Both the position numbers and the translations under genes were made by a program. From positions 398,266-462,265 of the forward strand of contig CAWHYQ010000002.1 of the NCBI GenBank assembly GCA_963833705.1: 64,000 nucleotides of DNA. The letters are read 5' to 3'. The stretch comes from an uncultured Chloroflexia bacterium (lineage in GTDB: Bacteria > Chloroflexota > Limnocylindria > Limnocylindrales > CSP1-4). Numbering within the stretch: the first letter of the stretch is position 1; every line of letters starts with the position of its first letter. The notes under the pieces are model-generated. The model worked only from the letters and a program-made list of their open reading frames with translations. It was not told the origin of the DNA and made no database searches. Below, one piece after another: positions 26,225-54,810 of this stretch.

Positions 26225-26301
26225 CGGCGCGCCAATTCTCGGTAGGGTGAGCGTGAGGTGTATCTTCTGGCATCTTCGAGCCATCTAACGCTTCGAGCGA
26301 G

Positions 26302-27165: not shown

Positions 27166-27184
27166 AACGCGCTATCATCCGCGC

Positions 27185-27218
27185 CGGCTCGGCCGTCTGG
27201 AGGAGGACGGCCGAGCCG
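27185..27218 (+). terminator. 13-bp-stem hairpin followed by CTTCGTTTCCC, between beta-ureidopropionase and the LLM oxidoreductase
   Basis: The sequence is CGGCTCGGCCGTC tggaggag GACGGCCGAGCCG. It could act as a terminator or as an attenuator. Confidence 0.4.
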
Positions 27219-27243
27219 CTTCGTTTCCCGAAAGGCACGTCTC

Positions 27244-28251: not shown

Positions 28252-28285
28252 CGCCTGCGGTATCGCCCGTCGCTACCATGCCCCG

Positions 28286-30280
28286 ATGACGGTGGCGCGC
28301 CTCCGCCGCGTGTTGACGGTCAGCCGGCCGACGTCGTGGATCCAGACCGGTCTGCCGTTCCTGGTCGCGGCGTTCGCCGTGACCCGCGAACTCACGCCCC
28401 TGCTCGTGATCGGCACGATCTACTTCCTTGGCCCCTACAACCTGCTCCTCCACGGCGTCGACGAGGCCCACCAGGTCGACACGGACCCCGAGACCGTCGA
28501 CGACGACGACGCGGCGACGGCAGCCAGGGACCTCTGGATCGCGATCTCGGTCACGAACCTGCCGTTCCTCATCGTCCTGACCATCCTCGCCGGACCGGTC
28601 GCCGGGCTCGCCCTCCTCCTCGCAGTCGCGGCGGCCATCGCCTATTCGGACCTGCCGGCCCGGACGAGGGAGCGACCGATCCTCGATTCGGCGACGAGCG
28701 CCCTGCATCTGGTTCTGCCGGCGGCGTGCGGCTTCCTGGTCGTGGGACTACCGGTCGGCGAGCTGCCTTGGGCCGCCCTGTTCGCGTTCACGGCCTGGGC
28801 GATGGCGACCCATGCGCTCGAGGGTTGCCGCCGAGCCGGCGCGGATCGAGCGGCGGGGGTCGCGTCCGTGGCGACCGAGCTCGGCGTGCGGACGACCGCG
28901 GCGGGTGCACTGGTCGGCTACCTGTTCGCGGTCGTCCTGGCCGCCACCCAGGGGCCGGGCGGAGCCCTCGCGGCCGTCGGCCTGGCGCTCTATCTCCTCC
29001 CCGCCACGATGGTCGTCCTTCGCCCCGACGACGCGGTCGCCGAGGCCGCCTGGGGCCAGGTCGCCGGGCTCGACGTCCTGGTCGGGATCTGGCTCGGGTC
29101 CATCCTCGCGTGGGTCTGGGGGATCGTCCGGTTCGACCCCTGGGTCGCGTGGATCGGGCTCGCCTCCGGGGCGACGATCATCGTCCTGTTCGATGTCCTC
29201 GTGACCCGCTTCGCGGCCCGGCGTCGGACGGTCCCCATCCATCAGCGCACCCCGCGCGAGACCGACGAGTCGCCGTTGACCATCGTCGTGACCGGTCGCG
29301 ACCGGGCGGCCGACCTGCCGGCGTGCCTGGCGGCCCTTCGCGCGCAGACCCATCCCGACCCGAGGATCCTCGTCGTCGATGGGGCGTCCATCCTCGGAAC
29401 GACCGACCTCGCGCGTGGGCTGCTCGGGGACGATGGCGAAGTCGTGCCGCTCCCACCGGCCCCGCCAGGTTGGGACGGTGTCGGATGGGCTCGCGACGTG
29501 GGTGCCCGTGCCGCGGACGGCGACCTGATCCTGTTCGTCGACGCGAGCACGGTCCTGGCTCCCGTCGCGGTCCGGATCCTCGTCGAGCAGCTCGGCGCCG
29601 ATCGCGACGACATGGTCTCTGGCCTGCTGCGCCTGGCGATGCCGACCTGGGCCGAACGCCTCACGTCACCAGGGTTCGCGATGGTGTCGTTCGGGCTCGT
29701 CCCGTTGTGGCTGTCGAGGCGGACGGCCGGCCATCCACCGCAACTCGCGTTCGGGTCCGGGTCCCTCCTCATCGTCCGGCGCGAGGCGTACCTGACGACG
29801 GACGGTCACGCGGCAAACCCCGGCAGTCCACGCCCCGCGCAGGACCTGGCTCGGACCTTCGCCCGGGCGGGTCAGCGCGTCGGGCTGGTCCACGCGGCGG
29901 ACCTCGGGTCCAGTCGGCAGGGCGGGTCCATCCCAGGCGCCCTGGAGGCATGGCGACGTGGGTTCGTCGCGGGGGCCGGGGACTCGCTCGCGGGCGCGGT
30001 GGCGGTGCTCCTGGGTGAGGCCACGGCCCTGGCCCTGCCCCTGGCGCTCCCGATCGCCGCGTTCCTGGCTCGCGCTCCCCTGACCACGCTGGAGGCGAGC
30101 CTCGTCCCGCTCCTCATCCTGCTCCTCGGTCGGCTCGCGCTGGCCATCACGCAGCGGGAGCCCGTCGCGACGATCGTCTGGCATCCACTGACCGTCGCGC
30201 TGATGGTCATCGGGCAGGTGATCGGCATCGCGGACTTCGTGGTCGGCCGCCGGCCACGCTACCATCAGCCCCTGACCTGA
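28286..30280 (+). CDS. fusion protein: UbiA-like prenyltransferase domain + family-2 glycosyltransferase + C-terminal TM region
   Basis: ATG at 28286 inside ORF 28202..30280. The N-terminal 300 aa are polytopic, with VSRPTSWIQTGLPFLV and a second-motif-like ADRAAGVASVATELG. The middle (LTIVVTGRDRAADLPACLAALRAQTHPDPRILVVDGAS ... LILFVDAST) is GT2-like. The C-terminus has 3-4 more TM helices. Confidence 0.65.
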   Translation: MTVARLRRVLTVSRPTSWIQTGLPFLVAAFAVTRELTPLLVIGTIYFLGPYNLLLHGVDEAHQVDTDPETVDDDDAATAARDLWIAISVTNLPFLIVLTILAGPVAGLALLLAVAAAIAYSDLPARTRERPILDSATSALHLVLPAACGFLVVGLPVGELPWAALFAFTAWAMATHALEGCRRAGADRAAGVASVATELGVRTTAAGALVGYLFAVVLAATQGPGGALAAVGLALYLLPATMVVLRPDDAVAEAAWGQVAGLDVLVGIWLGSILAWVWGIVRFDPWVAWIGLASGATIIVLFDVLVTRFAARRRTVPIHQRTPRETDESPLTIVVTGRDRAADLPACLAALRAQTHPDPRILVVDGASILGTTDLARGLLGDDGEVVPLPPAPPGWDGVGWARDVGARAADGDLILFVDASTVLAPVAVRILVEQLGADRDDMVSGLLRLAMPTWAERLTSPGFAMVSFGLVPLWLSRRTAGHPPQLAFGSGSLLIVRREAYLTTDGHAANPGSPRPAQDLARTFARAGQRVGLVHAADLGSSRQGGSIPGALEAWRRGFVAGAGDSLAGAVAVLLGEATALALPLALPIAAFLARAPLTTLEASLVPLLILLLGRLALAITQREPVATIVWHPLTVALMVIGQVIGIADFVVGRRPRYHQPLT

Positions 30281-30307
30281 CTGCCGCCCGACCTCGAGGG
30301 AGGACCG

Positions 30308-31705
30308 ATGCGCACGCTCATCAGCCACGGGACGATCGTGACCGCGGACGCCTCGTTCGAGGCCGATGTCCTGATCGACGGCGAGACCATCGCCCAGATC
30401 GGGCGGGACCTCGCCGCTACCGGCGTGACCGCGGACGAGACGCTCGACGCGACCGGCGCCTATGTCATCCCGGGCGGCATCGACGTCCACACGCACATGG
30501 AATTGCCGTTCGGCGGGACCTTCGCCAAGGACACCTTCGAGACCGGCACGCGTGCCGCGGCGTTCGGTGGGACGACGTCCATCGTCGACTTCGCGGTCCA
30601 GAGCAAAGGTCAGTCGCTGCGAGCCGGCCTGGATGCGTGGCACGCCAAGGCCGAGGGCAACGCCGTCACCGACTACGGCTTCCACATGATCATGAGCGAC
30701 GTCAACGCCTCCACCCTCGCCGAGATGGACGGCCTGGTGGCCGAGGGAATCCCCGACTTCAAGCTGTTCACGGCCTACCCGGGCGTCTTCTACAGCGACG
30801 ACGGGGCGATCTTCCGGGCGCTCCAGCAGACCGCGAGGAACGGCGGGCTGATCATGATGCACGCCGAGAACGGCATGGCCATCGACGTGGTCGCCGAACA
30901 GACCTTCGAGTCGGGCACGACCGACCCGATCGGCCATGGTCTGGCGCGCAAGGCCATCTTCGAGGGCGAGGCGACCAACCGCGTCATCCGCCTGGCCGAG
31001 GCGGCCGGGGCACCCGTCTACATCGTCCACCTGTCGGCCCGCGAGGCGCTCGACGCGGTCCGCTCGGCACGCGATCGCGGCAGCAAGGTGTTCGCCGAGA
31101 CGTGTCCGCAGTACCTGTTCCTGTCGCTCGACGACCTCGGCCATGGGTTCGAAGGCGCCAAGTTCATCTGCTCGCCACCGCTCCGGACGAAGGATCACTG
31201 GGACGATCTCTGGACCGGGCTCGTCAAGGACGACCTGCAACTCGTGGCGACCGACCACTGCCCGTTCGACTTCCACGGCCAGAAGGAGCTGGGCCGGGGC
31301 GACTTCCGCAAGGTCCCCAACGGCCTGCCGGGCATCGAGGACCGGCTCGACCTGCTCCACGACGGCGGGGTCGTCGCCGGCCGGATCACGAAGGAACGGT
31401 GGGTGGAGATCGTCTCGACCGCGCCGGCCAAGCTGTTCGGGATGTATCCGCGCAAGGGGGCTGTCGCGGTCGGTTCCGACGCTGACCTCGTCATCTACGA
31501 CCCGAACGGGAGGCGGACCATCTCGGCGCGGACGCACCACATGGACGTCGACTATTCGTGTTACGAGGGCCGGGTGGTCCAGGGCGCGTCGCGGGTGGTC
31601 CTATCGCGCGGGTCGGTCGTCGTCCGCGACGGCGCATTCACGGGTCGCAAGGGCGCCGGCAGGTTCATCAAGCGAGCTCCCGCCGACCACGTCCGGGCCA
31701 ACTGA
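30308..31705 (+). CDS. dihydropyrimidinase / D-hydantoinase
   Basis: ORF 30308..31705 has GGIDVHTHMELPF, FKLFTAY (carboxylated Lys context), MMHAENG, VHLS and ATDHCPF. Confidence 0.9.
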   Translation: MRTLISHGTIVTADASFEADVLIDGETIAQIGRDLAATGVTADETLDATGAYVIPGGIDVHTHMELPFGGTFAKDTFETGTRAAAFGGTTSIVDFAVQSKGQSLRAGLDAWHAKAEGNAVTDYGFHMIMSDVNASTLAEMDGLVAEGIPDFKLFTAYPGVFYSDDGAIFRALQQTARNGGLIMMHAENGMAIDVVAEQTFESGTTDPIGHGLARKAIFEGEATNRVIRLAEAAGAPVYIVHLSAREALDAVRSARDRGSKVFAETCPQYLFLSLDDLGHGFEGAKFICSPPLRTKDHWDDLWTGLVKDDLQLVATDHCPFDFHGQKELGRGDFRKVPNGLPGIEDRLDLLHDGGVVAGRITKERWVEIVSTAPAKLFGMYPRKGAVAVGSDADLVIYDPNGRRTISARTHHMDVDYSCYEGRVVQGASRVVLSRGSVVVRDGAFTGRKGAGRFIKRAPADHVRAN

Positions 31706-31712
31706 CCGCGCG

Positions 31713-32636
31713 ATGGCTCGGCCGGCCCCGGGCGAGATGGTCGTGCTCGATGGCGGGCTTGCGACCGAGCTCGAGGCGCGCGGGTACGACCTGTCGGACC
31801 GGCTGTGGTCGGCGCGGCTGCTGGTGACCGATCCGGACGCCATCGAGGACCTCCACCTGTCCTACTTCCGGGCGGGCGCCACGGTCGCGACGACCGCCAG
31901 CTACCAGGCGACCGTGCCGGGGTTCGAGGCGGCCGGGTACGACCGCGCGGCAGCGCTCGAGGCCATCCGCACGAGCGTGGCCCTGGCCCGACGGGCCAGG
32001 GATCGGTACCGGCACGAGGTCGGCGACACGGTCGCGCTGTACGTCGCGGGTTCCGTCGGGCCGTATGGCGCGATGCTCGCGGACGGGTCCGAATACCGCG
32101 GCGACTACGACCCCGGGTCGGCGACCCTGCGCGACGTCCATGCCCCTCGGATCGACACGCTGCTCGACGCCGGCGCGGACTTCCTCGCGTTCGAGACGAT
32201 CCCGACGATCCGCGAGGCGGAGGTCCTCGTGGACCTGCTCGTCGCATCCGGTGCTTCGGCCTGGCTGTCGTTCCAGTGCCGCGACGGCCGTTCGACCGCG
32301 GCCGGCGAACCCGCCGTGGAGGCGTTCGGCATCGCCGGGAGCGCACCGGGCGTCCTCGCCATCGGCGTGAACTGCGGCCCGCCACGCCATGTCCCTGCCC
32401 TGCTCGCGCTCGCCGCCGGCGTCGCCGACCGGCCGTTGATCGCGTATCCGAACGGTGGCGACACGTGGGACGCGACCGCCCGCCGCTGGATCCCGGCGGA
32501 CGGTGACGCTTACGACCCGGGCGCCGTGGCCTCCTGGACCGGCCTTGGCGCGACGTGGCTCGGGGGTTGCTGCGGGACGGGTCCGGCCGATATGGCCGCG
32601 CTGGCAGCCGCCATCGTCACGGCAGCCGAGCGCTGA
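31713..32636 (+). CDS. mmuM: homocysteine S-methyltransferase
   Basis: ATG at 31713 inside ORF 30936..32636. It has VVLDGGLATELEARG, FETIP, GVNC and the Zn-ligand motif GGCCGTGP. Confidence 0.85.
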   Translation: MARPAPGEMVVLDGGLATELEARGYDLSDRLWSARLLVTDPDAIEDLHLSYFRAGATVATTASYQATVPGFEAAGYDRAAALEAIRTSVALARRARDRYRHEVGDTVALYVAGSVGPYGAMLADGSEYRGDYDPGSATLRDVHAPRIDTLLDAGADFLAFETIPTIREAEVLVDLLVASGASAWLSFQCRDGRSTAAGEPAVEAFGIAGSAPGVLAIGVNCGPPRHVPALLALAAGVADRPLIAYPNGGDTWDATARRWIPADGDAYDPGAVASWTGLGATWLGGCCGTGPADMAALAAAIVTAAER

Positions 32637-36950: not shown

Positions 36951-39829
<2,879 letters not shown>

Positions 39830-40042
39830 CGTCGGTGGACTCCTGGAGCGCAGGCGATCACGGTGATCGACCGGCCGCGCGTGACGCTCACCCGAAGGCG
39901 AGACAGGAGTCGGCTTCCGCAGTCGTAGTGCGACGATGCTAGCACGTTGCGAAATGGTTGCGGTGACCCAGAAGTCCGCAACCATGCCGGGACGACTGGC
40001 CGACACGGACTCGGCGGGACCTCCCGCCGTGGCACCATCCGA

Positions 40043-40071
40043 TTGACTCGGGCGCCAGCAGCCCGTAGCAT
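40043..40071 (+). promoter_or_regulatory. candidate promoter TTGACT-17-TAGCAT for the riboswitch transcript
   Basis: TTGACT lies at 40043-40048 and TAGCAT at 40066-40071, about 17 nt upstream of the riboswitch P1 helix. Confidence 0.45.
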
Positions 40072-40087
40072 GCGCTGACAACCGAAG

Positions 40088-40200
40088 AGCTCTTATCAAG
40101 AGTTGGCTGAGGGACCGGCCCGTTGAAGCCACGACAACCTACCGGCGTCGCGTCGGCAAGGTGCCAAGTCCGGGCAGGTCCTCCTGCACGATAAGGGAAC
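40088..40200 (+). promoter_or_regulatory. SAM-I (S-box) riboswitch aptamer
   Basis: GCUCUUAUCAAGAG-UUGGCUGAGGGACCGGCCCGUUGAAGCC-ACGACAACC-...-GGUGCCAAGUCC-GGGCAGGUCCUCCUGCAC-GAUAAGGG matches the conserved S-box blocks (UUAUCAAGAG, GAGGGA, GGCCC.UUGAA.CC, CAACC, GGUGC.AA.UCC, GAUAAG) in the right order. The 5' and 3' ends can form P1. Confidence 0.85.
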
Positions 40201-40283
40201 TCCCTTCGGAGACTCCCCTTTCAGGCCAAGGCGGTCGCCTGCCCACCCGGTCCCGAGGCGCGCTCCACACCCCGGAGACGACC

Positions 40284-41584
40284 ATGGCGACCGACATCCT
40301 GCCCGCCCCGCCCGCAGCCCCGGTGCGCATCCTCGGCATGCGCTGTCGCAACTGCGGCCGCACCGAGCCGATCGGCCTGTCGTACGTGTGTGTCGCATGT
40401 TTCGGGCCGCTCGAGGTCGACTACGACTACGCGGCGATCGGGGCGACCTTGACGCGCGCGGCCATCGCCGGCCGCCCACCGGGGATCTGGCGCTATGCCG
40501 AGCTCCTGCCCGTCGACGCGCGCGCCCGTCCGCGGCCTGCCGGTCGGCTCCACGCCCCTCATCGAGGCCGAACGACTCGCCCCGACGCTCGGCCTCGATC
40601 GCCTCTGGATCAAGGACGACACGCGGAACCCGTCGCTCAGCTTCAAGGACCGCGCGGTCGCGGTCGCCGCGGCCCGCGCCGTGGAGTTCGGGGTGGAGGC
40701 GCTCGCCTGCGCGTCGACCGGCAACCTGGCCGGCGCGACGGCGGCCGCGGCGGCCGCACTTGGTCTGCCGGCCTACGTCTTCATCCCCGCCGACCTCGAA
40801 CCCGCCAAGGTGGACCACGCCCTGGCCTACGGCGCGACCGTCGTCCCGATCGAGGGCACCTACGACGACGTCAACCGGCTCTGTCTCGAGGTCGCCGACG
40901 AGACCGGCTGGGGGTTCGTCAACATCAACCTGCGGCCGTTCTACGCCGAGGGTTCGAAGACGCTGGCCTACGAGATCGCGGAGTCGCTCGGCTGGCGCTC
41001 ACCCGACGTCGTCGTCGCGCCGGTCGCCTCCGGGGCGATGTTCACCCGTGTCGCGCGTGGGTTCGAGGAACTCGTCGAGCTGGGGCTCATCGAGCCGCGG
41101 CCCATCCGCTTCGTCGGCGGCCAGGCTGCGGGCTGCGCACCGGTCGCGACGGCCTGGGCCGCCGGGACCGACGTGATCGACGCCGGTCCGCGAGCCCGAC
41201 ACGATCGTCCGCTCGCTCGCCATCGGCAATCCGGCGGACGGGCAATTCGCGATCGAGCTGGCCAACGCGTCGGGCGGCTCGATCGAGGCGATCGAGGACA
41301 CCGTGACGGCCGAAGCGATCCGCGAGGTCGCCCGCCTCGAGGGGATCTATCCGGAGACCGCCGGCGGCGTCACGCTCGCGGCCACGGCGGCCGCGCGTCG
41401 GCGCGGTGTGATCCGACCCGGCGACGAGGTCGTCGCCCTGCTGACCGGGAATGGGCTCAAGACGCCGGATGCGCGCACCCTGGGTCACGGCGACGGCGTC
41501 GCCTGGCCGGGCCAGCCGGGTCTCGCCCCGGCGATCCGACCGAGCCTGTCGGCGTTCGAGCGCTGGCTCGGTGGCGAGGCATGA
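40284..41584 (+). pseudogene. threonine-synthase-like PLP enzyme with an N-terminal Cys4 zinc ribbon (MetM-like?), two frameshifts
   Basis: ATG at 40284 with a GGAG Shine-Dalgarno. The first frame gives MATDIL...GMRCRNCGRTEPIGLSYVCVACFGPLEVDYDY...LLPVDAR. The second gives PVRGLPVGSTPLIEAERL...NPSLSFKDRAVAVA (PLP lysine)...ASTGNLAGA.... The third gives VREPDTIVRSLAIGNPADG...LLTGNGLKT.... Breaks lie at about 40524 and about 41186, and both are 1-base gains. Confidence 0.8.
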
Positions 41585-41853
41585 GCACGGTCCGCATCCC
41601 GCCCACGCTCAGGGTCGCGACCGGCGGGGCGAAGCAGGTCGAGGTGCCAGGCGGCACGGTCCGCGAGGTGGTGACCGGTCTGGTCGCGGCCTATCCGGCC
41701 CTCGAGTCGCAACTCCTCGCGCCCGACGGGGACCTCAACCGGTTCGTCAACGCGTTCCTGAACGACACGGACGTCCGCCACCTCCAGGCGCTCGACACGC
41801 CCGTCGGCGAGACCGACACCCTCGTCCTCCTGCCGGCGATGGCCGGCGGCTGA
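41581..41853 (+). CDS. MoaD/ThiS-family sulfur-carrier protein ending in Gly-Gly
   Basis: ATG at 41581 overlaps the ThrC-like stop (ATGA). The 90-aa protein is MSTVRIPPTLRVATGGAKQVEVPGGTVREVVTGLVAAYPALESQLL...TDTLVLLPAMAGG. It shows the beta-grasp carrier pattern with a C-terminal GG. Confidence 0.75.
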   Translation: MSTVRIPPTLRVATGGAKQVEVPGGTVREVVTGLVAAYPALESQLLAPDGDLNRFVNAFLNDTDVRHLQALDTPVGETDTLVLLPAMAGG

Positions 41854-42015
41854 CCGACCCCGCGACTGAAACCGTTCGGGGCTAAAGGGCCGCGTCCCCA
41901 GGAATGAAGGGTGCGCCGGGTCGAGAATCACGGCTTTGGTCGATGGCCGGCGAGCGGCCGGCGGCCACCCTGTCGTCAGACGGCCGGAACGGCCGGCGAG
42001 CAGAGGGGGCGACCG

Positions 42016-42213
42016 ATGTCAGCCGCGAAGAGCATGTTCTTCTTGATCAACCACAACCAGGACCGATGGTGGCTCGATGACGACCCGCATCGCCTGCCAT
42101 ACGCCAAGGTCGACGCACCGCCGCTCCCGGACGAACCGCAGCGGGAACGATCGTCGTACGTGAACCGGCTCGCCTTCCGGCTTCGGATCACCATCCGCCC
42201 GTCGGCCGGCTGA
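42016..42213 (+). CDS. small hypothetical protein (65 aa)
   Basis: ATG at 42016 is preceded by GAGGGGG. Third-position GC is high (about 80 %), as in neighbouring genes. There is no recognisable family. Confidence 0.4.
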   Translation: MSAAKSMFFLINHNQDRWWLDDDPHRLPYAKVDAPPLPDEPQRERSSYVNRLAFRLRITIRPSAG

Positions 42214-42216
42214 CCG

Positions 42217-42540
42217 TCAGTCGGTGTGGAAGACCTCGGGCAGGGTCAGCCACCAGGCCCCGGGCGGGCGCTCCGGATACGGATCCTGCATCGCATCGGT
42301 CTGGCTCCACCACGACTGGATGACCGGGTCCGCGGCCATCGCCGCCATGTCCCGGTCGAAGTCGTCGCCGACGTACTCGAAATACGCGAAGAGCTGCTCG
42401 CCGTGCCGATAGATCGAGTAGTTACGGATGTTGGCCGCCTCGATGGCGGCGAGGACGCCCGGCCAGGTTTCGGCGTGGAGGCGCTCGTAGGCGTCGATCG
42501 ACTCGGGCCGAACCCGGATGACCTGTCCGAACCGGCTCAC
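42217..42540 (-). CDS. rhaM: L-rhamnose mutarotase-family protein
   Basis: GTG at 42540 (GTGA overlap with the upstream gene). [56 protein letters not shown]...MQ matches the RhaM family. Confidence 0.85.
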
Positions 42541-43832
42541 GACCACGCGGAACCGCCCGGATAGCGGTATCGGGCGATGGACGCCGGCCGCATCGTGGCG
42601 CTGTAGCCGGGCGCGGTCGGCAGCACGTATCGCCCATCGCGGATGACCACCGGGTCCACGAAATGCTCGTGCAGGTGGTCGACATACTCGATCATCCGCC
42701 CGTCCAGCCGCCCGCTCACGGCGATGTAGTCGAAGGCGGACAGGTGCTGCACGAGCTCGCACAGGCCGACTCCGCCGGCGTGCGGACAGACCGTCACGCC
42801 GAACCGCGCCGCCAGCAGCAGGACTGCGACGACCTCGTTGACGCCACCGAGCCGGCAGGCGTCGATCTGGCAGATGCTCAGTGCATCGGCCGCCAGGAAC
42901 TGCTTGAACATGATCCGGTTATGGACGTGCTCGCCGGTGGCGACCCGGATGGGCGCCACGGCCCGGGCGATCGCCGCGTGACCGAGGATGTCGTCGGGGC
43001 TCGTGGGCTCCTCGATCCAGTACGGGTCGAACGGTGCGAGATGGGTCATCCACTCGATGGCCGTGTCGACATCCCAGCGCTGGTTGGCGTCGACCGCGAG
43101 CATGTGCTCCGGCCCGATCTCGTCGCGGATGATCCGGATCCGTCGGACGTCGTCGTCGACGTCGGCCCCGACCTTCATCTTGAACCGCGTCCAGCCCTCG
43201 GCCAGCGCCTCGCGACAGAGCCGCCGGATCTTGTCGTCGTCGTAGCCCAGCCAGCCGACCGAGGTCGTGTAGGCGGGATACCCGTCACGCAGCAGCTCCG
43301 CCTCGCGTTCGCCTCGACCTGCCACGTTCCGCTCGAGGAGTACGAGCGCGGCGTCCGGGGTCAGGGCGTCGGTGAGGTAGCGGAAGTCGACGAGGCTCAC
43401 GATCTCCGCCGGCGACATGTCGCTCAGGAGCTTCCAGACGGGCACCCCGGCCCGCTTGGCGACCAGATCCCAGGCGGCGTTGACGACGGCCGCCGTCGCG
43501 AGGTGGATGACGCCCTTCTCCGGCCCGATCCAGCGCAGCTGGCTGTCGCCGACCAGGTCCCGCCAGAACCCGCCGAGGTCCGCCGCGAGGCCATCGACGG
43601 ACCGCCCCAAGACGAGTGGACGAAGCGCCTCGACCGCGGCCACCACGATCTCCGTCCCGCGGCCGATCGTGAACGTGAGGCCGTGGCCCTCGTGCCCGTC
43701 GTCCGCGTCGGTGCGCAGGACGACGTACGCGGCGGAGTAGTCCGGGTCCGGGTTCATCGCATCGGATCCGTCGAGCGTCCGCGACGTCGGGAAGCGGATG
43801 TCGACGACATCGAGCCCCGTGATGGTCGGCAT
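42537..43832 (-). CDS. L-fuconate dehydratase-type enolase-superfamily enzyme
   Basis: ATG at 43832 inside ORF 42537..44144. It has [17 protein letters not shown]..., [18 protein letters not shown] and [10 protein letters not shown]. Confidence 0.85.
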
Positions 43833-43834
43833 GG

Positions 43835-44812
43835 TCAGCCCTTGAGCGCGCCGACCAGGATGCCGCGCGTGATGTAGCGCTCGAGCAGGATCGCCATGAC
43901 CACGACCGGCGTGATCATGATCAGGATCAGGACGGACATCGCCCACCACTGCGGGCCGCGTGTCGCGTTCTGGGCGGCGACCTGGAGCGGCATCGTCTGG
44001 GCAGTTCGCGCTGGTCAGCACGAGGGCGATGAGGAACTCGTTCCAGGCGAAGATCAGCACGATCAGGAACGTCGCGACGAGGCCCGGCACCGAGATCGGC
44101 AGCACGATCGAGCGGACGATCCGGTAGACCGACGCGCCGTCCACCGACGGCCGACTCCTCGAGCTCGATCGGCAGCGCCGCGAAGTAGTCGCGCATCAGC
44201 CAGACGACGATGGGCAGGTTGGTCGCGACGTAGGTGATGACCAGCGCGGCGAGGCTGTCGAGCAGGCCGATCTGCTGGAACAGCACGTACATCGGGATGA
44301 CCACCGCGATCGGCGGCAGGATCCGCTGCGAGATCATCCAGAACGCGATGTCGCTGTTGCCGAGGGCGCGCTTGAACCGTCGCCCGATCGTCTGGGCGAG
44401 GATGACGAAGACGCCCAGCGCCGCGGCGCCGGCGATCGGCAACGGCGCACCCAGACGCCATCGCGACCAGCGTGAAGGCGAGGCAGCCGATGAACAGGCC
44501 GATGATCCCGAACCGTGGGCTGTACGTGAAGCGCACCAGCGCGTAGGCCGCGAACGACCCGAGGACGAGCGCGATGACCGCGCTCGACGATGCCGACGAT
44601 CACGGTGTTGACGTACGGTCGCAGCGTGTCGTTGCCCGAGCTCGACGAGGATGTAGCGCCAGGCGTCGAGGGTCGGCTGGAAGTCGACGAAGGGGATGTA
44701 GAACGGTCCCTTGTCCACCTGGTACGGCCGTCTTGAACGAGGTGACGACGAGCCAGTAGATCGGCAGCAGGACGACGAGCGCCCAGCCGCACAGGAGCGC
44801 GAACGCGCCCGA
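43835..44812 (-). pseudogene. carbohydrate ABC transporter permease (MalG-like), multiple frameshifts
   Basis: Coherent peptide pieces are scattered over all three minus frames. They include GAFALLCGWALVVLLPIYWLVVTSFKTA, VDKGPFYIPFVDFQPTLDAWRYILVELG, NDTLRPYVNTVIVGIV and RFTYSPRFGIIGLFIGCLAFTLVAM. Further pieces are [113 protein letters not shown] and a tail ending ...GALKG with the stop at 43835. There are at least 5 breaks, and the 5' boundary is approximate. Confidence 0.7.
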
Positions 44813-44818
44813 GCTTGG

Positions 44819-46083
44819 CTAGCGGGTGCAGTCGAGCGGCGACCGGCGCCGGAACGGGTTCCTCACGAGCGTCGCGGCGCGCCCGTGCTCACGTCGCCGC
44901 TCCGCGTCGCGGGCGAGGCTGACGTACGCGGTCGCGACGAGGGTGACGACGATCAGCAGCAGGTAGGCCACCGCCGCCGATCTGCCGAGGTTGAGCGAGT
45001 TCCAGTCGATGTAGGCCTGGAGCGACATCGACTGGGTCGCCGTGCCCGGACCGCCGCCGAGCAGGATGTTGGGCATGTCGATGATCTTGAAGCCCTCGAT
45101 GAGCCGGATGAGCACGATCGTCGTCACGACCGGCAGGATGGCCGGGAGCGTGATGTTGAGGAAGCTCTGCCAGCGGCTGGCGCCGTCGACGACCGCGGCC
45201 TCGCGCACCTCCTGGTCGAGGCTCTCGAGCGCCGCCAGCAGGACGATGAACACGAACGGCGTCCACTGCCACGTGTCGCCGATGATGACGGCGACGCGTG
45301 CCGCCCACGGATCGGTCACCCACGAGAAGTTGCGCAGTCCGAGGCCGACCCAGAGCGGCTCGAGCGGCCCCTTGGACGTGTCGGTCATCATCAGGAACAT
45401 GTAGCCGACGCCGACCGGGGTGATCGTCAGCGGGAATCAGGAAGGCGACCCGGAAGAAGCGCCGCACAGGGACCGCCTGGACGCACAGGATCGCGAGTCC
45501 GAGGCCGAGCAGCGAGCTGCACGCCGATCCCGGCGAACACGAAGATCATCGTGACGATCAGGGCGCCGGGCCGCCCGCCGCTGCTGGCCAGCGCCCCCAC
45601 GAGCAGCCACAGGAAGCCGACGAATACGATCCCGGCCATCAGCCGGAGGGCCAGACCGAACGGCCCGAACCGCCCGCCGCGGACGGCCCGTGTGAACGCC
45701 CAGACCGTGCCGCCGATCCCGACCGACGAGGATCAGCCAGCCGAGCGGGGACGGCGTCTTCAGGACGCCCGAGGAAGTGGCTCTGTTCGGTGCCGAACAG
45801 CAGCTGGTAGTAGTTCGAGAGGCCGATGAACGTGAGGTCGACGCCGCCCTTGCGGAAGACCAGCTTCGAGACGGACAGCGCGACCGATGCGACGAGCGGG
45901 AAGATCGACAGGAACAGGATGACGATGACGGTCGGCCAGATGAAGACCCAGCGGGCCGCGCCGTCCGAACGCCACGCGCCGAGGGTGTCGACCGCTCGGC
46001 GCGTGGCCCGGGCTGTCGAGGGCCGGTCCGTCCTGGACCGGCCCTCCGGGCTCGGTGTCGATGACGTTATCGCTGGACGCCAA
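44819..46083 (-). pseudogene. carbohydrate ABC transporter permease (MalF-like), multiple frameshifts
   Basis: The pieces are ARWVFIWPTVIVILFLSIFPLVASVALSVSKLVFRKGGVDLTFIGLSNYYQLLFGTEQSHFLG, VLKTPSPLGWLILV, LMAGIVFVGFLWLLVGALASSGGRPGALIVTMIFVFAGIGV and AFLIP/LTITPVGVGYMFLMMTDTSKGPLEPLW...DGASRWQSFLNITLPAILPVV.... There are at least 3-4 breaks, and both boundaries are approximate. Confidence 0.7.
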
Positions 46084-47665
46084 GGCTGGCGACGTAGGCA
46101 GCGAGTTGCTTGTCCTTGCCGGCCTCGTTGGTGATCCCGTTCCAGCCATCGGCGATCGCCTGTTCGGTGCCGGCCTCGTCGAGCTCGCCGGCGAGGTACT
46201 GGGCGACGGCGGTGTCGAGGACGTCCTGTTCGTAGCGCTTGGTCAGCGGGATGCGCAGATCGAGCACCATGTTGGGACTCTGGAGGCTGTTCTTGATGGC
46301 GTCAAGGTAGTTGGTCGCTGCGGCTTCGCTGAGTCCGGCGGCCTCCCACGGCGCGAGGTCTGCTGAAGTGTGAGGTGCGATACGGGTTGTAGCCGGTCTT
46401 GCCGAGGGTCACGTCCGTCTCGGATTGCGCCGGCGCGCTCATGTACGAGAGGAAGGCGTAGGCGGCGTCCTGCTGCGGCTTGCGGCGCGGCCGCGTTGAC
46501 CGCCCCGGACCAGCCGCCGAACGAGGCGAACGGAGCGTAGTTGACGCCGTCGACCGCCTTGGGGCAGGTCGTCGCGTCGCACGGCGACGAGCTTGCCGGT
46601 CGTGCGATCGAGGACCTCCTTCCAGCCCGGGGTGATGGTCGCGCCGGTCTTGTCCTGCGCGTAGGTGCCGGGCGCCAGCGTGCCGATGTCGCCCCAGTCC
46701 ATGGTCAGGGCGCAGCGACCGGTCGTGAACAGGCCGCGGCTGCCGCCGACGTCCATGTTCAGCTCGTCGGGCGGACCGACTGTCCTTCGTGGCCTTGTAC
46801 AGCTGGAGGGCCTTGGTCATGGCCTCGTTCGGGCCGAACAGCGGCGTCATGTCCTTCGTGTCGAAGAAGGCGCCCTGGTTCGTGCCCTGGCTCTGGAGCA
46901 GGCCGGCGGCGATCGAGATGATCCACCAGTAGCTCTGGGCGCCCTTCTTCTTGGCGATGCACGAGCCGTAGTCGGGCTCGCCGTCGCCGTTGAGGTCCTG
47001 GCCCTGGTACTTCTTCGCGATGGTCAGGTAGTCGTCCCATGTCGCCGGCGGCTTGAGGCCGTCCTTGGTCAGGAGGTCGCTGCGGTAATAGACCATGTGG
47101 AAGTCACCGTCGAGCGGGATGGTGTAGACCTTGCCGTCATAGGTCGCGTTGAAATCGCGGAAGAACGGACCGATGTCCTGCCACTTGAGGCTCGCGTCGT
47201 CGTTGACCTTGTCGGTCAGGTCGAGCAGGTAGCCCGGGCCGACGAAGTCGCCAAGCCACTGCGGATTGAAGACGTACGCGTCGAAGCTGTTCGTCGCCGA
47301 TGCCGCGTCGAGCAGCGCCTTGTCGTAGATCGTCTGGAACCCGACGGCGATGACGTTGACGTGCGCGCCGGTGAGCTTCTCGAAATCGGGGGCGCGCCGC
47401 TGGAGCGGCTCGGCGACCTGCGGACCGTTGAAGGTGAGCAGGTTGACGTTGATTCCCTTGAACGCCTGGGACGGCGGCCGGCGTCGGAGCCGCCGCTGCG
47501 GATGCCGAGGCGGCCGCCGTCGCAGCCGGCGGATGGCGTAGCCTGCCGGCGGCGGGCGCTGGGTGGCGTACTCGCGGCGGGCGACGGGCTCGTTGTTGCC
47601 GAGCCACAACCCGCCATCACGAGTATCAAGCCAACCACTGGCGCGATGGATCTGAACCGCGACAC
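46067..47665 (-). pseudogene. carbohydrate ABC transporter substrate-binding lipoprotein, multiple frameshifts
   Basis: GTG at 47665 follows GGAGGAGGA. The lipobox is VGLILVMAGCGS. The long middle piece is in ORF 46302..47708 (FKGINVNLLTFNGPQVAEPL...DGEPDYGSCIAKKKGAQSYWWIISIAAGLLQSQG...). A further piece is in ORF 46439..46756 (GRCALTMDWGDIGTLAPGTYAQDKTGATITPGWKEVLDRTTGKLV). The C-terminus is in ORF 46067..46270. There are at least 5 breaks. Confidence 0.75.
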
Positions 47666-47811
47666 TGGTGGTCCTCCTCCTCTTGACCTCGCCAGGCCCG
47701 TCCAGCATACTGAACGACTGGCGGTAGGTTGAACAGGATACGGACCGGAGCCGCCAAAGTCAATATGTTGTACGCAGTCCATCCTGCTGTCCGCTCGTTC
47801 GGACCGTTCGG

Positions 47812-48679
47812 ATGACCGTGGTGGAGGTCCGGCGGATGGCCGCTCGCGAGACGCCGATCGAAACCGAGCCGACGGCCGGCACCATCCGGTCGGGTGACGA
47901 CGCCGGTCGCGACGCGGAGTCGCTGACGCCCGCCGTCACCCGCGCCGCACTCATCCTGGACGTCCTGGCCGAGAGCGGTGGCGACCCGGTGGGTCCGAGC
48001 GAGCTGGCTCGACGGCTCGGGCTTGCCCAAGTCGTCCATCGCCAACATCTGCGGTGCGCTGGCCGACGCCGGGCTCGTCCGGCGCGTGTCAACGGGCTTC
48101 GCGCTCGGCCGCCGTCTCGCCGAGCTGGGCGGCGCCTACCTCGCGACGGTCGACCAGGTCCAGGAGTTCTACGAGGCATCGCGCAACCTGCCGGCGGGCT
48201 CGGAAGAGACGGTCCAGTTCGCGGTCCTCGACGGGTTGGAGGTCACCTATCTCGCCCGACACGACGGACGCCAGCCCGTGCAGCTGACCTCGGGGATCGG
48301 CCGCCGGCTGCCGGCCTTCTCGACGGCGACCGGCAAGGCGGCGCTCGCATCGCTGCCGTCCGAGGAGCTGGGACGTCGGCTGGCCGGCCTGACGACGCTG
48401 CCGCGGGCCACGCGGAAGGCACATGCCACGGTCGACGAGCTGCTGGCGGACCTCGAGGAGATCCGACTGCGCGGGTATGCGATCGATGACGAGCAGACCA
48501 TGGAAGGCGTCGTCTGCTACGGCGTCATGGTCCCGAGCCGGCAACCCGGCGGCGAAGGCCCATGTGGGGCGAGCATCACGCTGCTCAAGGTCCGGGCCAC
48601 GGCCGAACGGGTACCCGCCCTCATCGCCGACCTGCACTGGCTCGCCGCGGAGCTATCCGACCCCATCCGGCGCGACTGA
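47812..48679 (+). pseudogene. IclR-family transcriptional regulator, one frameshift
   Basis: The N-terminal wHTH start (VTRAALILDVLAESGGDPVGPSELARRLGL) is in ORF 47812..48489. It continues as PKSSIANICGALADAGLVRRV... plus the effector domain in ORF 47978..48679. There is one extra base at about 48025. Confidence 0.8.
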
Positions 48680-49537
48680 GATCGCGTAGGCCCGTTCGGC
48701 GGCCCCGCCGAAGATGGCCCCCCGCTCGTCCGGTGACAAGGCGCTGGTGAGCTCGCGGGCGGCCGCCACGACCTCGCCATACGACGCGGCGAGCCGGCAC
48801 ACCGGCCAGTCCGACCCGAAGATCAGGCGCGACGGCCCGAAGACCTCCAGGGCGATCTCCACCGCCGGCGCGAGGTCGGCCACACGCCACGACCCCCAGT
48901 CGGCCTCCGTGACGAGACCCGACAGCTTGCACCAGACATGGTCCAGCGCCCCGAACGGCCGGAGCCGGGCCGCCCACGACTCGAGGTCGCCCGAGCGGAT
49001 CGGCGGCTTGGCCAGGTGGTCGATCACGAAGCGGGTCTCGGGCTGCCCCCGGGCGACGGTCAGCGCGGCTGGCAGCTCGCGGGCTCGGACCAACAGGTCG
49101 AACGTGAGCGAGGCCCGTTCCACGACGAGGAGGCCGCGGCGGACGTCAGGCCGGAGCAACCACGAAGGATCGGGTTCGTCGTGGACCTGGTGGCGGATCC
49201 CGATGAACCGATCGCCGCCTGGGCCCGAGCGGATGGCCTCGATCGCGCCCGCGACGGCGACGTCGGTCAGGTCGGCCCAGCCGACGACGCCGGCGATGAA
49301 CTCGGTGGCCGCCGCGGTCGCGAGGAAGTCGCGGGTCTCGTCCGTGCTGGAGATGGTCTGCACGAGGACGGTCCGGTCGACGCCGGCCCTGCGGAGCTCG
49401 GGCGCCAGGTCGTCGGGGCCCCATGGCCGGTCGATCGCCGCGAGCGCCGGGGTCAGCCACGGATAGTCGACACGCCCGGGATCCAGGAAGTGGTGGTGCG
49501 CATCGAGGCGAATGCGCTCGGGTGGTTCTGCGGCCAT
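48653..49537 (-). CDS. amidohydrolase-2 family protein (L-fucono/rhamnono-lactonase type)
   Basis: ATG at 49537 inside ORF 48653..49588. It has IRLDAHHHFLDP, VIDHLAKPP, CKLSGLVTEA and IFGSDWPV. It overlaps the 3' end of the convergent IclR gene by 27 bp. Confidence 0.8.
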   Translation of the reverse strand: MAAEPPERIRLDAHHHFLDPGRVDYPWLTPALAAIDRPWGPDDLAPELRRAGVDRTVLVQTISSTDETRDFLATAAATEFIAGVVGWADLTDVAVAGAIEAIRSGPGGDRFIGIRHQVHDEPDPSWLLRPDVRRGLLVVERASLTFDLLVRARELPAALTVARGQPETRFVIDHLAKPPIRSGDLESWAARLRPFGALDHVWCKLSGLVTEADWGSWRVADLAPAVEIALEVFGPSRLIFGSDWPVCRLAASYGEVVAAARELTSALSPDERGAIFGGAAERAYAISVAPDGVG

Positions 49538-49704
49538 CGCGGCGTCCCCTGGTCGGGTGGATCGGACGCCAAGATTGACGCATCCCATCGGCGAAGGTAT
49601 CGTTCAATCGGTCGTCCACAGGTCAGTATACTGAACAAGGGGAGTCGGGTGGCGGTCGAGTCGTTCCAGAGGAGGCGCACGGCGCGCGCGGAGCGTCCTC
49701 GCCG

Positions 49705-50598
49705 ATGCGCCTGATGTCCTACCGCTCCCCCGCCGGCGTCGAGGCGCTCGGGGTCGCGACGCTCGACCGCTGGCTGCCCGCTGCGGAGGCATCGCCCCGA
49801 GGCCCGCGAACCATGGCCGAGCTGATCGACGGGGGTGCGCCCGTCCTCGACGCGCTCCGCGCCGCGGCCGAACCCGACCGCATCGACGCCGTCGGCCGTC
49901 CGCTCGACGACGTGGACTGGCTCGCGCCCGTGCGGCGACCGGGCAAGGTCGTGGGCATCGGTCGCAACTACCGCGAGCACATCGACGAGGAAGGCGCCGA
50001 GGCGCCCGGGGCCCCACTGGTCTTCAGCAAGTGGCCGAGCTGTGTGGTGGGGCATGAGGCCGACATCAGCTGGGATCCCGAACTCACCGCCCAGGTCGAC
50101 TACGAGGCCGAACTCGCGGTCGTCATCGGCCGGCGTGCGCGTCGGGTTACGGTGGACGACGCCCTCGACCACGTCCTTGGCTACACGTGTCTCAACGACG
50201 TGTCGGCGCGGGATCTCCAGTTCGGCGACGGGCAATGGGCACGCGGCAAGTCGCTCGACACGTTCTGTCCGATGGGCCCGGTCCTCGTGACCGCCGATGA
50301 GATCGCCGACCCGCAGGACCTCGACATCACCTGTCGGGTTGGCGACGAGGTCGTCCAGCAGGCGAACACGCGACTGATGTACTTCGGCGTGGCGGAGATC
50401 ATCAGCTACTGCTCCCAGTCCTTCAGCCTCGAGCCGGGGGACGTCATCGCAACCGGCACGCCTGGCGGCGTCGGCATCTTCCGGTCGCCACCGCTGCTCC
50501 TCCGCGGTGGCGACCGGGTCACCGTCGAGATCGAGCGGATCGGCCGTCTCGTCAACACCTGCCGCTACGAGAACGCCGCGGTGGCGGCGAGCGCATGA
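49705..50598 (+). CDS. fumarylacetoacetate hydrolase (FAH) family protein
   Basis: ORF 49705..50598 has GIGRNYREH, VDYEAELAVVIG, NDVSARDLQ and GDVIATGTPGGVG. Confidence 0.85.
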   Translation: MRLMSYRSPAGVEALGVATLDRWLPAAEASPRGPRTMAELIDGGAPVLDALRAAAEPDRIDAVGRPLDDVDWLAPVRRPGKVVGIGRNYREHIDEEGAEAPGAPLVFSKWPSCVVGHEADISWDPELTAQVDYEAELAVVIGRRARRVTVDDALDHVLGYTCLNDVSARDLQFGDGQWARGKSLDTFCPMGPVLVTADEIADPQDLDITCRVGDEVVQQANTRLMYFGVAEIISYCSQSFSLEPGDVIATGTPGGVGIFRSPPLLLRGGDRVTVEIERIGRLVNTCRYENAAVAASA

Positions 50599-51587
50599 GT
50601 CCCGCGCAGGAGCGGTTCCTCGTCACGGGCGCCCTTGGTTGTATCGGCGCCTGGACGGTCCGCACGCTGGTCGGGAACGGCGCCGACGTGACCGCGTTCG
50701 ATGTCGGACGGGATGCCCGGCGGCTGCGCCTGATCATGACTGACGCCGAGTTCGAACGGGTGCGGTTCGAGGTCGGCGACATCACCGAACTGGCGTCACT
50801 GGAACGCGTGCTCGACCAGTACGAGATCACGAATATCATCCACCTCGCGGCCCTCCAGGTCCCCTTCTGTCGAGCGGATCCACCGCTCGGCGCCCTGGTC
50901 AACGTGGTCGGCACGGTCAATGTGTTCGAGGCCGCCAGGCGCCGGGCCGACCGGATGGCGCCCGTCGTCTACACGAGCTCCATCGGCATCTATACGGCCG
51001 AGGACGCGGATCCCGTGACCGGCCGCCTGGCGACCAACGCGACCCAGCATCCACCCAACCATTACGGCGTCTACAAGCAGGCGAACGAGGGCAACGCGCG
51101 GATCTACTGGCTGGAGAACGGCCTGTCGACCATCGGCCTCCGCCCGATGACCGTCTACGGCGTGGGTCGCGACCAGGGCATGACCAGTGGCCCGACGAAG
51201 GCGATCGTCGCCGCGGTCCTGGGCCAGCCGTACGAGGTGTCGTTCCGCGGGGCCACCCTGTACCAGTACGCAGGCGATGTGGCCGAGAACCTGATCGCCG
51301 CGAGCCGGAGCACGCTCGTCGGCGCGCACGTCTTCAATCTCCCGGGCGAGGTCGCCGACGGTGCGGCCCTGACCGCGGCCATCGAAGCGGCGGTCCCGGG
51401 TGCGTCGAGCCTTATCGGCTTCGCCTCGACCGAGCTGCCGTTCCCGAGCGAGATCGACCACGATGGCCTCGAGGCCATCGACCCACCCGGGGTCACGCCG
51501 CTCGCCGCGGGTGTCGAGGCGAGCGTCGAGATCTACCGGGCGCTGGCGCGGGACGGCCGCCTGGTCGCCGCCGACCACGGGCTCTAG
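50595..51587 (+). CDS. NAD-dependent epimerase/dehydratase-family (extended SDR) protein
   Basis: ORF 50595..51587 overlaps the FAH gene by ATGA. It has VTGALGCIGAWTVRTL (Rossmann) and YGVYKQANE (YxxxK). Confidence 0.8.
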   Translation: MSPAQERFLVTGALGCIGAWTVRTLVGNGADVTAFDVGRDARRLRLIMTDAEFERVRFEVGDITELASLERVLDQYEITNIIHLAALQVPFCRADPPLGALVNVVGTVNVFEAARRRADRMAPVVYTSSIGIYTAEDADPVTGRLATNATQHPPNHYGVYKQANEGNARIYWLENGLSTIGLRPMTVYGVGRDQGMTSGPTKAIVAAVLGQPYEVSFRGATLYQYAGDVAENLIAASRSTLVGAHVFNLPGEVADGAALTAAIEAAVPGASSLIGFASTELPFPSEIDHDGLEAIDPPGVTPLAAGVEASVEIYRALARDGRLVAADHGL

Positions 51588-51631: not shown

Positions 51632-52795
51632 TCAAGCCCGGTCGAGGGCCCCCGCGAGATCGGCGATGAGGTCGTCCACGGCCTCGATCCCCACCGACAG
51701 CCGGACGAGCGCGGCAGGCACTTCGAGCGGTGAACCGGCGACCGAGAGATGGGTCATCGCCGCCGGGACCTCGATGAGCGACTCGACGCCGCCGAGGGAC
51801 TCGGCCAGGGTGAACCAGCGGGTCGACTCGGCGATCGCCACCGCGCGCTCGGCGGGAGAGCGACCGTGGACGCCGCCGCTCGCCGGGAGGAACGAGACCA
51901 TCCCGCCCATCCCCGGATACAGGACCGTCGCGACATCGGCTCGACCCGACAGGAACGCGGCCACGGCCATGGCATTCGCCACGTGCCGTTCCATACGCAG
52001 GTGCAGCGTCCGCAGCCCGCGCAGGACGAGGAAGCAATCGAGCGGCCCCGGTACCGCGCCCATCGCGTTCTGCAGGAACCGCAGGCGCTCGGCGACCGCG
52101 TCGTCCGAGGTCGCCGCCACCCCGACGATCGTGTCGGAGTGCCCCGAGAGGTACTTCGTCGCCGAGTGGAAGACGATGTCCGCCCCGAGGGTGAGCGGCC
52201 GCTGGAGCGCCGGAGAGGCGAATGTGTTGTCGACCACGATCAGCGGCCGGCGCCCGCCTTCGGCCGCCCGACGGGCGACGGTCGCCGCGGTGGCAGCGAT
52301 GTCGATGATCCGGAGATGCGGGTTCGATGGTGTCTCGAACCAGACCAGCCGGGTCCGCTCGGACAGGGCCTCCCAGAGTACGTCGGGGCCGGACGCCAGG
52401 TCGATGTACTGCGCGTCCACGCCCTTGGCTCGATGGACCCGTTCGAGATAGCGGTAGGTCCCGCCGTAGACGTCATCGCCGACGACGATCTCGTCGCCAG
52501 GTCCGGCCAGGTCGGCGATGGCCGCGGTCGTCGCCGAGCCCGAGGCGAAGGCGATGCCGTGCGTGCCGCCCTCGAGCGTCGCGACCGCCCGCTCGAGGCG
52601 CTCGCGGGTCGGGTTCTGCGAGCGCGCGTACTCGTAGCCGCGACGGGGCCGGCTCACGCCGTCCTGCGCGTACGTCGAGGTCTGGTAGATCGGCGGAGCG
52701 ACGGCGCCGGTCAGCTCGTCGGGTTCGGCTCCTGCGTGGACGGCCAGGGTCTCGAAGGCTGGTTCGCGGTCCGGATCGTGCATCGGGGCCATCAT
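51632..52795 (-). CDS. cystathionine gamma-lyase/gamma-synthase family PLP enzyme
   Basis: ATG ATG at 52795 inside ORF 51632..53152. It has TLAVHAG, YEYARSQNPTR and FHSATKYLSGHSD (PLP lysine). Confidence 0.85.
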   Translation of the reverse strand: MMAPMHDPDREPAFETLAVHAGAEPDELTGAVAPPIYQTSTYAQDGVSRPRRGYEYARSQNPTRERLERAVATLEGGTHGIAFASGSATTAAIADLAGPGDEIVVGDDVYGGTYRYLERVHRAKGVDAQYIDLASGPDVLWEALSERTRLVWFETPSNPHLRIIDIAATAATVARRAAEGGRRPLIVVDNTFASPALQRPLTLGADIVFHSATKYLSGHSDTIVGVAATSDDAVAERLRFLQNAMGAVPGPLDCFLVLRGLRTLHLRMERHVANAMAVAAFLSGRADVATVLYPGMGGMVSFLPASGGVHGRSPAERAVAIAESTRWFTLAESLGGVESLIEVPAAMTHLSVAGSPLEVPAALVRLSVGIEAVDDLIADLAGALDRA

Positions 52796-52806
52796 GGCAC
52801 CGGCCG

Positions 52807-54770: not shown

Positions 54771-54810
54771 CGCGGCCGAGTATAGGTGCCCGCCGGGAGG
54801 CGCCGGACCG

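Follow-up and report, generated by a model that had tools for sequence, protein, structure and literature searches.

A probable MetM/MetO-type operon for homocysteine synthesis with a predicted SAM-I riboswitch in an uncultured Chloroflexia bacterium

A 64,000-nucleotide stretch of contig CAWHYQ010000002.1 from an uncultured Chloroflexia bacterium (the whole stretch is called the window here, and positions are counted from its first letter) contains a leader RNA of the S-adenosylmethionine-I (SAM-I) riboswitch class, followed by two overlapping genes that resemble metM and metO of Streptomyces. Taking all evidence together, we put the probability at about 80% that this is a two-gene MetM/MetO-type operon for homocysteine synthesis under the control of a SAM-I riboswitch. 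The first gene encodes a pyridoxal phosphate (PLP) enzyme with the fold of threonine synthase (ThrC). Judged by homology with the system of Streptomyces albulus, this enzyme would bind O-phospho-L-homoserine and eliminate phosphate, and sulfur would then be added from the C-terminal thiocarboxylate of the GG-ended, translationally coupled carrier encoded by the second gene, giving homocysteine. Adenylation and sulfuration of the carrier would be the task of a MoeZ/ThiF-type enzyme whose gene would lie in another part of the genome. At high SAM levels, as is expected for this riboswitch class, the leader RNA would bind SAM and both genes would be expressed less.

Systems of this kind are known. 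MetM of S. albulus is a ThrC homolog that turns O-phosphohomoserine into homocysteine with the help of the carrier MetO (Hasebe, Adachi, Maruyama and Hamano 2024, Appl Environ Microbiol 90:e01247-24, as reported in PMC12172450). That article describes MetM as a homocysteine synthase identified in Streptomyces with homologs in cyanobacteria, mentions an adjoining gene resembling metO, and says that S. albulus metM is preceded by a SAM riboswitch. In GapMind 2026 the steps are MetO, Mec, MoeZ and MetM, with MoeZ and Mec as helpers (10.1101/2024.10.14.618325). These two sources and 10.64898/2026.09.15.751699 are the literature on MetM/MetO, MoeZ, Mec and the metM riboswitch used here. The S. albulus system has the same three parts as the window locus, namely an upstream SAM riboswitch, a ThrC-homologous PLP enzyme and, beside it, a ThiS/MoaD-type carrier, and the window locus is therefore best seen as another member of the published system, for which O-phosphohomoserine as substrate and homocysteine as product are predicted as well. 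Since the S. albulus gene has its own riboswitch (PMC12172450), riboswitch control is not new either. The window locus differs in that it is found in Chloroflexota (Limnocylindria-like), with an identity to the characterised MetM that is probably near 50%, that MoeZ and Mec are missing from the window, that the carrier ends directly with GG-stop, and that an 86-nt linker without a terminator separates the aptamer from the start codon.

A preliminary description of this DNA, made from its letters alone, had proposed thiocarboxylate-dependent homocysteine synthesis from O-phosphohomoserine and had named a MetM/MetO route from Streptomyces. That route is indeed found in PMC12172450 and 10.1101/2024.10.14.618325, the proposal is supported by this literature and by the survey of related loci presented below, and the expectation of a riboswitch-controlled example in a different lineage rather than a new pathway is supported as well. 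Neither a new pathway nor a new class of regulator is revealed, and this kind of operon is both known and widely distributed. What it means is that Chloroflexota (Limnocylindria-like soil bacteria) join the organisms for which homocysteine synthesis from O-phosphohomoserine and a protein thiocarboxylate is predicted, and that a cassette of riboswitch, enzyme and carrier is spread over many phyla, where it is almost always annotated as 'threonine synthase'. A metabolic reconstruction based on such annotation would overlook methionine prototrophy in uncultured soil bacteria and count threonine synthase twice.

The enzyme, its carrier and related loci

The enzyme gene starts with the ATG at 40284 and ends with a TGA stop at 41582-41584, and it can be read only in frame 0, then +1, then +2, because of two single extra bases that are treated in the next section. 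The repaired product matches Pfam PALP with 237 bits, and more than 100 intact proteins of 431–442 amino acids are 85–91% identical to it over 96–100% of its length. Its first 67 residues contain four cysteines (C21, C24, C36 and C39) that are conserved in relatives of 37–50% identity and are predicted to form a zinc ribbon, and K121 of the SFKDR motif, the lysine expected to form the Schiff base with PLP, is invariant even in these distant relatives. The ThrC-fold open reading frame (ORF) with an N-terminal cysteine ribbon and SFKDR motif, as it was first described, is confirmed. The best solved relatives are threonine synthases (2ZSJ with 200 bits, then 1UIM, 6CGQ and 2D1F), with matches that begin only at residue 64–68 of the window enzyme. 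An AlphaFold (AF2) model of a homolog that is 91% identical has a pLDDT of 90, residues 10–60 included, and superimposes on ThrC structures with TM scores of 0.83–0.87 (normalised to the target); here too, the best folds in the PDB are threonine synthases. There was no MetM structure in the PDB copy searched. The window enzyme shares with canonical ThrC (Aquifex 2ZSJ, Thermus 1UIM, Mycobacterium tuberculosis 2D1F and Bacillus subtilis 6CGQ) the fold, the PLP lysine motif, the STGN loop and the presumed substrate, whereas these solved enzymes are only 31–38% identical and lack the 67-residue N-terminal region with its predicted Cys4 ribbon. The PLP-phosphate loop differs as well, being GNAGN in the Aquifex enzyme and VASGAM in the window enzyme, and the NPYRIEGQKT of the Aquifex enzyme is replaced by RPFYAEGSKT.

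The start codon of the carrier gene at 41581 overlaps the stop codon of the enzyme gene in an ATGA, and the carrier of 90 amino acids ends with ...LLPAMAGG-stop at 41853; both the coupling and the PAMAGG end had been read correctly in the preliminary description. The carrier matches Pfam ThiS (PF02597) with 43 bits against a cut-off of 22.5, and NCBIfam SAMP1 with 58 bits. Trimming of the C-terminus would be unneeded, since the ORF already ends with GG-stop. The closest solved chains are of the CysO type, namely 4N6E_B (E 8e-17) and CysO of M. tuberculosis, 3DWG_C (E 4e-16), and the nearest carriers of this type serve CysM and a thiosugar synthase. Searches of the window for partner genes gave nothing: ThiF, sulfite reductase and TusA were absent by six-frame phmmer with seeds, and JAMM by a motif search of the six-frame translation, as had been said earlier of adenylating and JAMM partners.

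Two other carrier-dependent systems can be compared to this one. In the CysM/CysO/MoeZ/Mec system of M. tuberculosis (PDB 3DWG), a GG-ended carrier of the same subfamily donates thiocarboxylate sulfur to a fold-type II PLP enzyme that acts on an O-phospho amino acid, but CysM is an enzyme of the CysK/CysM type and makes cysteine from O-phosphoserine. We know of no SAM riboswitch in the CysM/CysO system. A protein-thiocarboxylate-dependent homocysteine synthesis was reportedly described by Krishnamoorthy and Begley in 2011 for HcyS/HcyF/MetY of Wolinella succinogenes. The carrier-thiocarboxylate route to homocysteine matches the one predicted here, and clusters with ThiF and sulfite reductase also occur among the relatives of the window locus (L086 and L087, see below), while the PLP enzyme differs: MetY is a fold-type I O-acetylhomoserine sulfhydrylase that uses the acetyl ester, and it is not a ThrC homolog.

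The survey covered 85 loci from at least eight phyla, all encoding relatives that are at least 47% identical to the window enzyme. At 74 of the 85 the next ORF after the enzyme gene belongs to the ThiS family, often with the same 4-nt overlap, and the phyla with such a pair include Chloroflexota, Actinomycetota, Cyanobacteria, Nitrospirota, Verrucomicrobiota, Planctomycetota and others. If the window is added to these 74 loci, 66 of the 75 carrier ORFs end exactly with GG-stop. Using a covariance model built from the window aptamer, a SAM-I aptamer immediately in front of the enzyme gene was found at 44 of the 85 loci, among them loci from Chloroflexota, Acidimicrobiales, Solirubrobacterales, other Actinomycetota, Verrucomicrobiota, Kiritimatiellae and Planctomycetota. 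The same model found no SAM-I aptamer at the cyanobacterial and Nitrospirota loci, and for the cyanobacteria this agrees with PMC12172450, where the MetM homolog of Microcystis is described as lacking the riboswitch. All-against-all clustering of the neighbouring ORFs gave no third gene that is conserved together with the pair (the next cluster is present at no more than 11 loci).

Some loci have different neighbours. As an example, in a metagenome-assembled genome (MAG) of Clostridia (L086, 3425-7545) a match of 90 bits to the Rfam SAM-I model RF00162 is followed by the enzyme gene and then by ThiS, ThiF, sulfite reductase and TusA. On an Elusimicrobia contig (L087, 372-6335), the enzyme gene is found together with a sulfite reductase-TusA, ThiS, a CysM-like gene and a ThiS-ThiF fusion. 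These sulfur-carrier clusters are fuller than the two-gene cassette of the window, and the company of genes in them ties the enzyme family to protein-bound sulfur transfer. In the cultured actinomycete Micromonospora coriariae (L088, 4855-6287) an RF00162 match of 69 bits precedes a MetM-like gene, and no carrier ORF is present in the 290-nt gap after that gene; here the carrier would therefore be encoded elsewhere or not be needed. Four cyanobacterial loci (L015 3457-3870, L057 3277-3579, L066 3472-3795 and L080 2850-3143) have, besides the downstream carrier, a second, divergent ThiS-family ORF that ends with PPVSGG and lies upstream of the MetM-like gene, and they have no SAM-I aptamer.

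Several findings speak against a MetM/MetO-type operon, and the first of them concern the possibility that the enzyme is an ordinary threonine synthase. In that case the ThiS-like gene would serve molybdopterin, thiamin or protein modification, and the riboswitch would tune the flux between threonine and methionine at the O-phosphohomoserine branch point. The repaired enzyme scores 250 bits with the thrC model TIGR00260, well above the cut-off of 167, the database names of its relatives are all 'threonine synthase', and the best matches in the PDB point the same way both in sequence and in fold. NF006050, a model that also covers the N-terminal ribbon, gives 281 against a cut-off of 303 and so stays below its threshold. 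On the other side, SAM-I riboswitches govern genes of methionine, cysteine and SAM; an adjacency of enzyme and carrier at 74 of 85 loci over many phyla, often with overlapping codons, is not what an ordinary threonine synthase would lead one to expect, and neither is the presence of ThiF, sulfite reductase and TusA alongside it in other phyla, or a PLP-phosphate loop unlike that of solved ThrC. Neither hom nor thrB is found near the enzyme gene in the window, where a SAM riboswitch and a coupled carrier gene stand in place of the hom-thrB-thrC grouping and the T-box or Thr attenuation expected for threonine synthesis. The TIGR00260 model evidently does not separate MetM-like proteins from threonine synthase, MetM is often misannotated as threonine synthase (GapMind 2026, 10.1101/2024.10.14.618325), and the characterised homolog yields homocysteine (Hasebe 2024, via PMC12172450). 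We regard an ordinary threonine synthase as very unlikely.

The second group of such findings concerns the link to MetM and the sulfur chemistry. The link to S. albulus MetM is indirect, as far as sequences can tell, and runs via cyanobacterial members that are about 50% identical to the window enzyme: the cyanobacterial homologs found here are 47–54% identical to it, S. albulus MetM and a cyanobacterial homolog share 51.6% (PMC12172450), and no Streptomyces entry was among the matches of our protein searches, with Micromonosporaceae-representative and profile searches included. An adjacent carrier gene is lacking in 11 of the 85 loci, and a profile built from the carriers had no match at these 11. 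Together with the fact that, among solved structures, CysO-type proteins come closest to the carrier, and that a cyanobacterial MetM homolog was assayed with Na2S (PMC12172450), this could be taken to mean that the pair makes cysteine from O-phosphoserine like CysM/CysO, that free sulfide is used and the carrier is dispensable, or that another thio-amino acid is the product. Such a different chemistry is very unlikely in our estimate. The enzyme is of the ThrC branch rather than the CysK/CysM one (250–281 bits with ThrC models), the window has its CysK/CysM-like protein in a separate gene, the cystathionine beta-synthase at 53349-54992, and the methionine branch ends in SAM, the ligand of this riboswitch class.

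Two extra bases in the enzyme gene

The preliminary description had seen two +1 frameshifts in the enzyme gene, at about 40524 and about 41186, and had warned that the gene could be dead. In a DNA alignment with six relatives there are exactly two bases in the enzyme gene that occur only in the window, G 40522 and C 41181. Without them the local readings become VDAPPVRGL and VIEPVREPD, which fit the consensus VDxPPxRGL and VIEPVRxPD, and apart from them the frame is free of stops and other lesions. The inserted bases are thus real in the sequence as deposited, whereas the inactivation of the gene that they seemed to imply is most likely an artefact.

The reason is that the two genes immediately upstream of the operon are broken in the same way. 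By the same alignment test, single window-only bases are found at 39417, 38758 and 38395 in pckA and at 37706 in mdh, so that the region 36951-41584 has them in three genes in a row. A codon-usage Viterbi analysis of all 64 kb gave several tens of single-base frame changes, at least ten of them in ABC-transporter genes at 44000-46800; this figure is an upper bound that counts gene boundaries too. Firm frameshift numbers are the alignment-based counts only, and the GC3 frame plot alone was too noisy. Several related long-read assemblies also have fragmented mdh and pckA genes. Since mdh and pckA bear the same single-base insertions, the frameshifts look like assembly noise that runs through the whole window, a pattern that is typical of an unpolished long-read MAG, and judging from the sequence comparison they are most likely errors of long-read assembly in a gene that is intact in the organism.

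If instead the frameshifts were real, the enzyme gene would be a recently inactivated pseudogene, with the riboswitch and the carrier as remnants. Long homopolymers are the classic site of long-read errors, and neither G 40522 nor C 41181 lies inside a homopolymer run, which speaks for two true +1 frameshifts and is a further point against a working operon. The insertions of the same kind in the housekeeping genes mdh and pckA, and the many other window genes in which the frame has to be corrected, leave the choice between a whole genome in decay and a noisy sequence. With no other lesions in the gene, a product that is so close to intact homologs, and the same kind of gene fragmentation in related long-read MAGs, a pseudogene seems highly improbable.

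The riboswitch and its leader

The S-box aptamer that the preliminary description had placed at 40088-40200 was recovered by Rfam with nearly the same borders (Table 1). RF00162 scores 65.5 bits on the plus strand against a gathering cut-off of 44.4 (E 5e-13, full model 1–108), and this is the single Rfam match at the gathering threshold in the whole window, where the scan reported no SAM-IV or other riboswitch class. Helix P1 is formed by CUCUUAUC (40090-97) and GAUAAGGG (40190-97) and encloses P2 to P4. Five of five close relatives that were scanned with Rfam have RF00162 in the same position with 72–75 bits. In an alignment of 45 distinct aptamers that precede related genes, 95.9% of the cells are paired and 27 of the 32 pairs show compensatory changes, a level reached by 0 of 500 shuffles, although this alignment was fitted to the covariance model, which favours the structure. 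For the covariance model from the window aptamer (R1) the Rfam-derived structure was imposed by hand, as RNAalifold on MAFFT alignments mis-folded the aptamer. By its class the leader RNA is a SAM-I riboswitch, and SAM binding is predicted.

The aptamer lies in the 5' leader of the metM-like gene, downstream of a conserved promoter. The TTGACT-17-TAGCAT site, proposed as the promoter already in the preliminary description, is the sole promoter-like match within 39850-42100, where shuffled sequences average 0.1 matches. In four relatives (L001, L002, L004 and L005) the TAGCAT of the -10 element is invariant and TTGAC of the -35 element is retained.

How the aptamer would control the genes is less clear-cut. 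Right after P1 there is a mini-hairpin, CUCC-CUUC-GGAG (40201-40212), the 3' arm of which duplicates the Shine-Dalgarno (SD) sequence: CGGAGAC stands at 40208-40214 and again, as the real SD region, at 40273-40279, and in five of seven relatives the bases beyond GGAG in this copy co-vary with the real SD. The mini-hairpin is followed by a C-rich tract that is able to pair with the 3' strand of P1. From the alignment and the folds we infer that the linker element 40198-40222, which comprises both, may have a regulatory role. RNAalifold on linker alignments gave no useful structure.

The real SD is the GGAG at 40274-40277, six bases before the ATG. It is predicted to be paired in all seven leaders (the window and six relatives), inside a hairpin that contains the conserved CCGGUCCCGAGG (40249-40260). 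In the window the unpaired probability of the SD is at most 0.03 regardless of whether P1 is enforced or forbidden, and in ViennaRNA folds of the seven leaders SD accessibility was likewise unchanged between the two settings. This is one more observation that does not favour the proposed control, for which the logic of an off-switch is therefore an assumption. The idea that formation of P1 frees an anti-SD was dropped for this reason. Another idea, that the hairpin after P1 is a terminator, was rejected, as it has no U-tract and competition with P1 would give the wrong polarity; a U-tract terminator was not found anywhere in the leader. The octamer CCGGUCCC (40249-40256) is the exact reverse complement of GGGACCGG (40113-40120) in the P2 region of the aptamer, and all close relatives retain both of them; in L002 and L004 there is one G-U wobble. 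The two could form an alternative pairing, although minimum-free-energy folds do not favour it. With the SD inside a conserved hairpin and an intrinsic terminator missing, classical attenuation is less likely here than regulation at the start of translation or Rho-dependent termination. A platform that would be new for SAM-I, in which SAM acts via an exchange of the decoy SD with the anti-SD or via exposure of a C-rich Rho-loading site, in place of a terminator or a simple sequestor, is rather unlikely.

Genomic setting

Table 1. Elements of the operon and its leader, in window positions
Feature	Position	Strand	Basis and details
Sigma-70-type promoter, TTGACT-17-TAGCAT	40043-40071	+	-35 at 40043-40048, 17-nt spacer, -10 at 40066-40071
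SAM-I (S-box) aptamer	40090-40197	+	RF00162 match
Conserved linker element	40198-40222	+	Alignment and folds
Predicted hairpin around the Shine-Dalgarno sequence	40232-40283	+	Folding in the window and six relatives
metM-like gene, ThrC-fold PLP enzyme	40284-41584	+	432 amino acids once G 40522 and C 41181 are removed
metO-like gene, ThiS/MoaD-family carrier	41581-41853	+	90 amino acids, AMAGG-stop, ATGA overlap with the metM stop

The nearest genomes are long-read soil MAGs from Microflora Danica, named 'uncultured Chloroflexia', with protein identities of 88% and 84%, and one homolog of the enzyme carries the name Candidatus Limnocylindrales. About 8 kb upstream of the operon there is a stand-alone homocysteine S-methyltransferase gene (31710-32633, plus strand, PF02574 with 245 bits), a candidate for the step from homocysteine to methionine.

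Downstream, on the minus strand at 51632-54992, lies a block with a cystathionine gamma-lyase/synthase-type enzyme (Cys_Met_Meta_PP, 394 bits), a GNAT protein and the cystathionine beta-synthase already mentioned, which has a PALP plus a CBS domain. In three relatives (L002, L004 and L005) the counterpart of this transsulfuration block directly abuts the carrier gene. The block suggests a second fate for homocysteine, as a source of cysteine via reverse transsulfuration.

In the window, metO and the transsulfuration block are separated by an island of about 9.4 kb (42217-51584) that is absent from this place in the relatives. It contains rhaM (L-rhamnose mutarotase), a sugar-acid dehydratase of the MR_MLE type, ABC sugar permeases with a binding protein, an IclR regulator, an amidohydrolase, an FAH-family protein and an SDR, and it looks like a catabolic cluster for deoxy-sugars (fucose/rhamnose-type) that was inserted there.

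Two further observations were made by eye in the translations. An ORF on the minus strand (11594-12178) has a long collagen-like run of Gly-X-Y. Ahead of the homocysteine methyltransferase gene, at 26269-31705 on the plus strand, there is a group of genes for a carbon-nitrogen hydrolase (beta-ureidopropionase-like), a luciferase-like oxidoreductase and a dihydropyrimidinase/hydantoinase-like amidohydrolase, for which reductive pyrimidine or hydantoin catabolism is a possible function.

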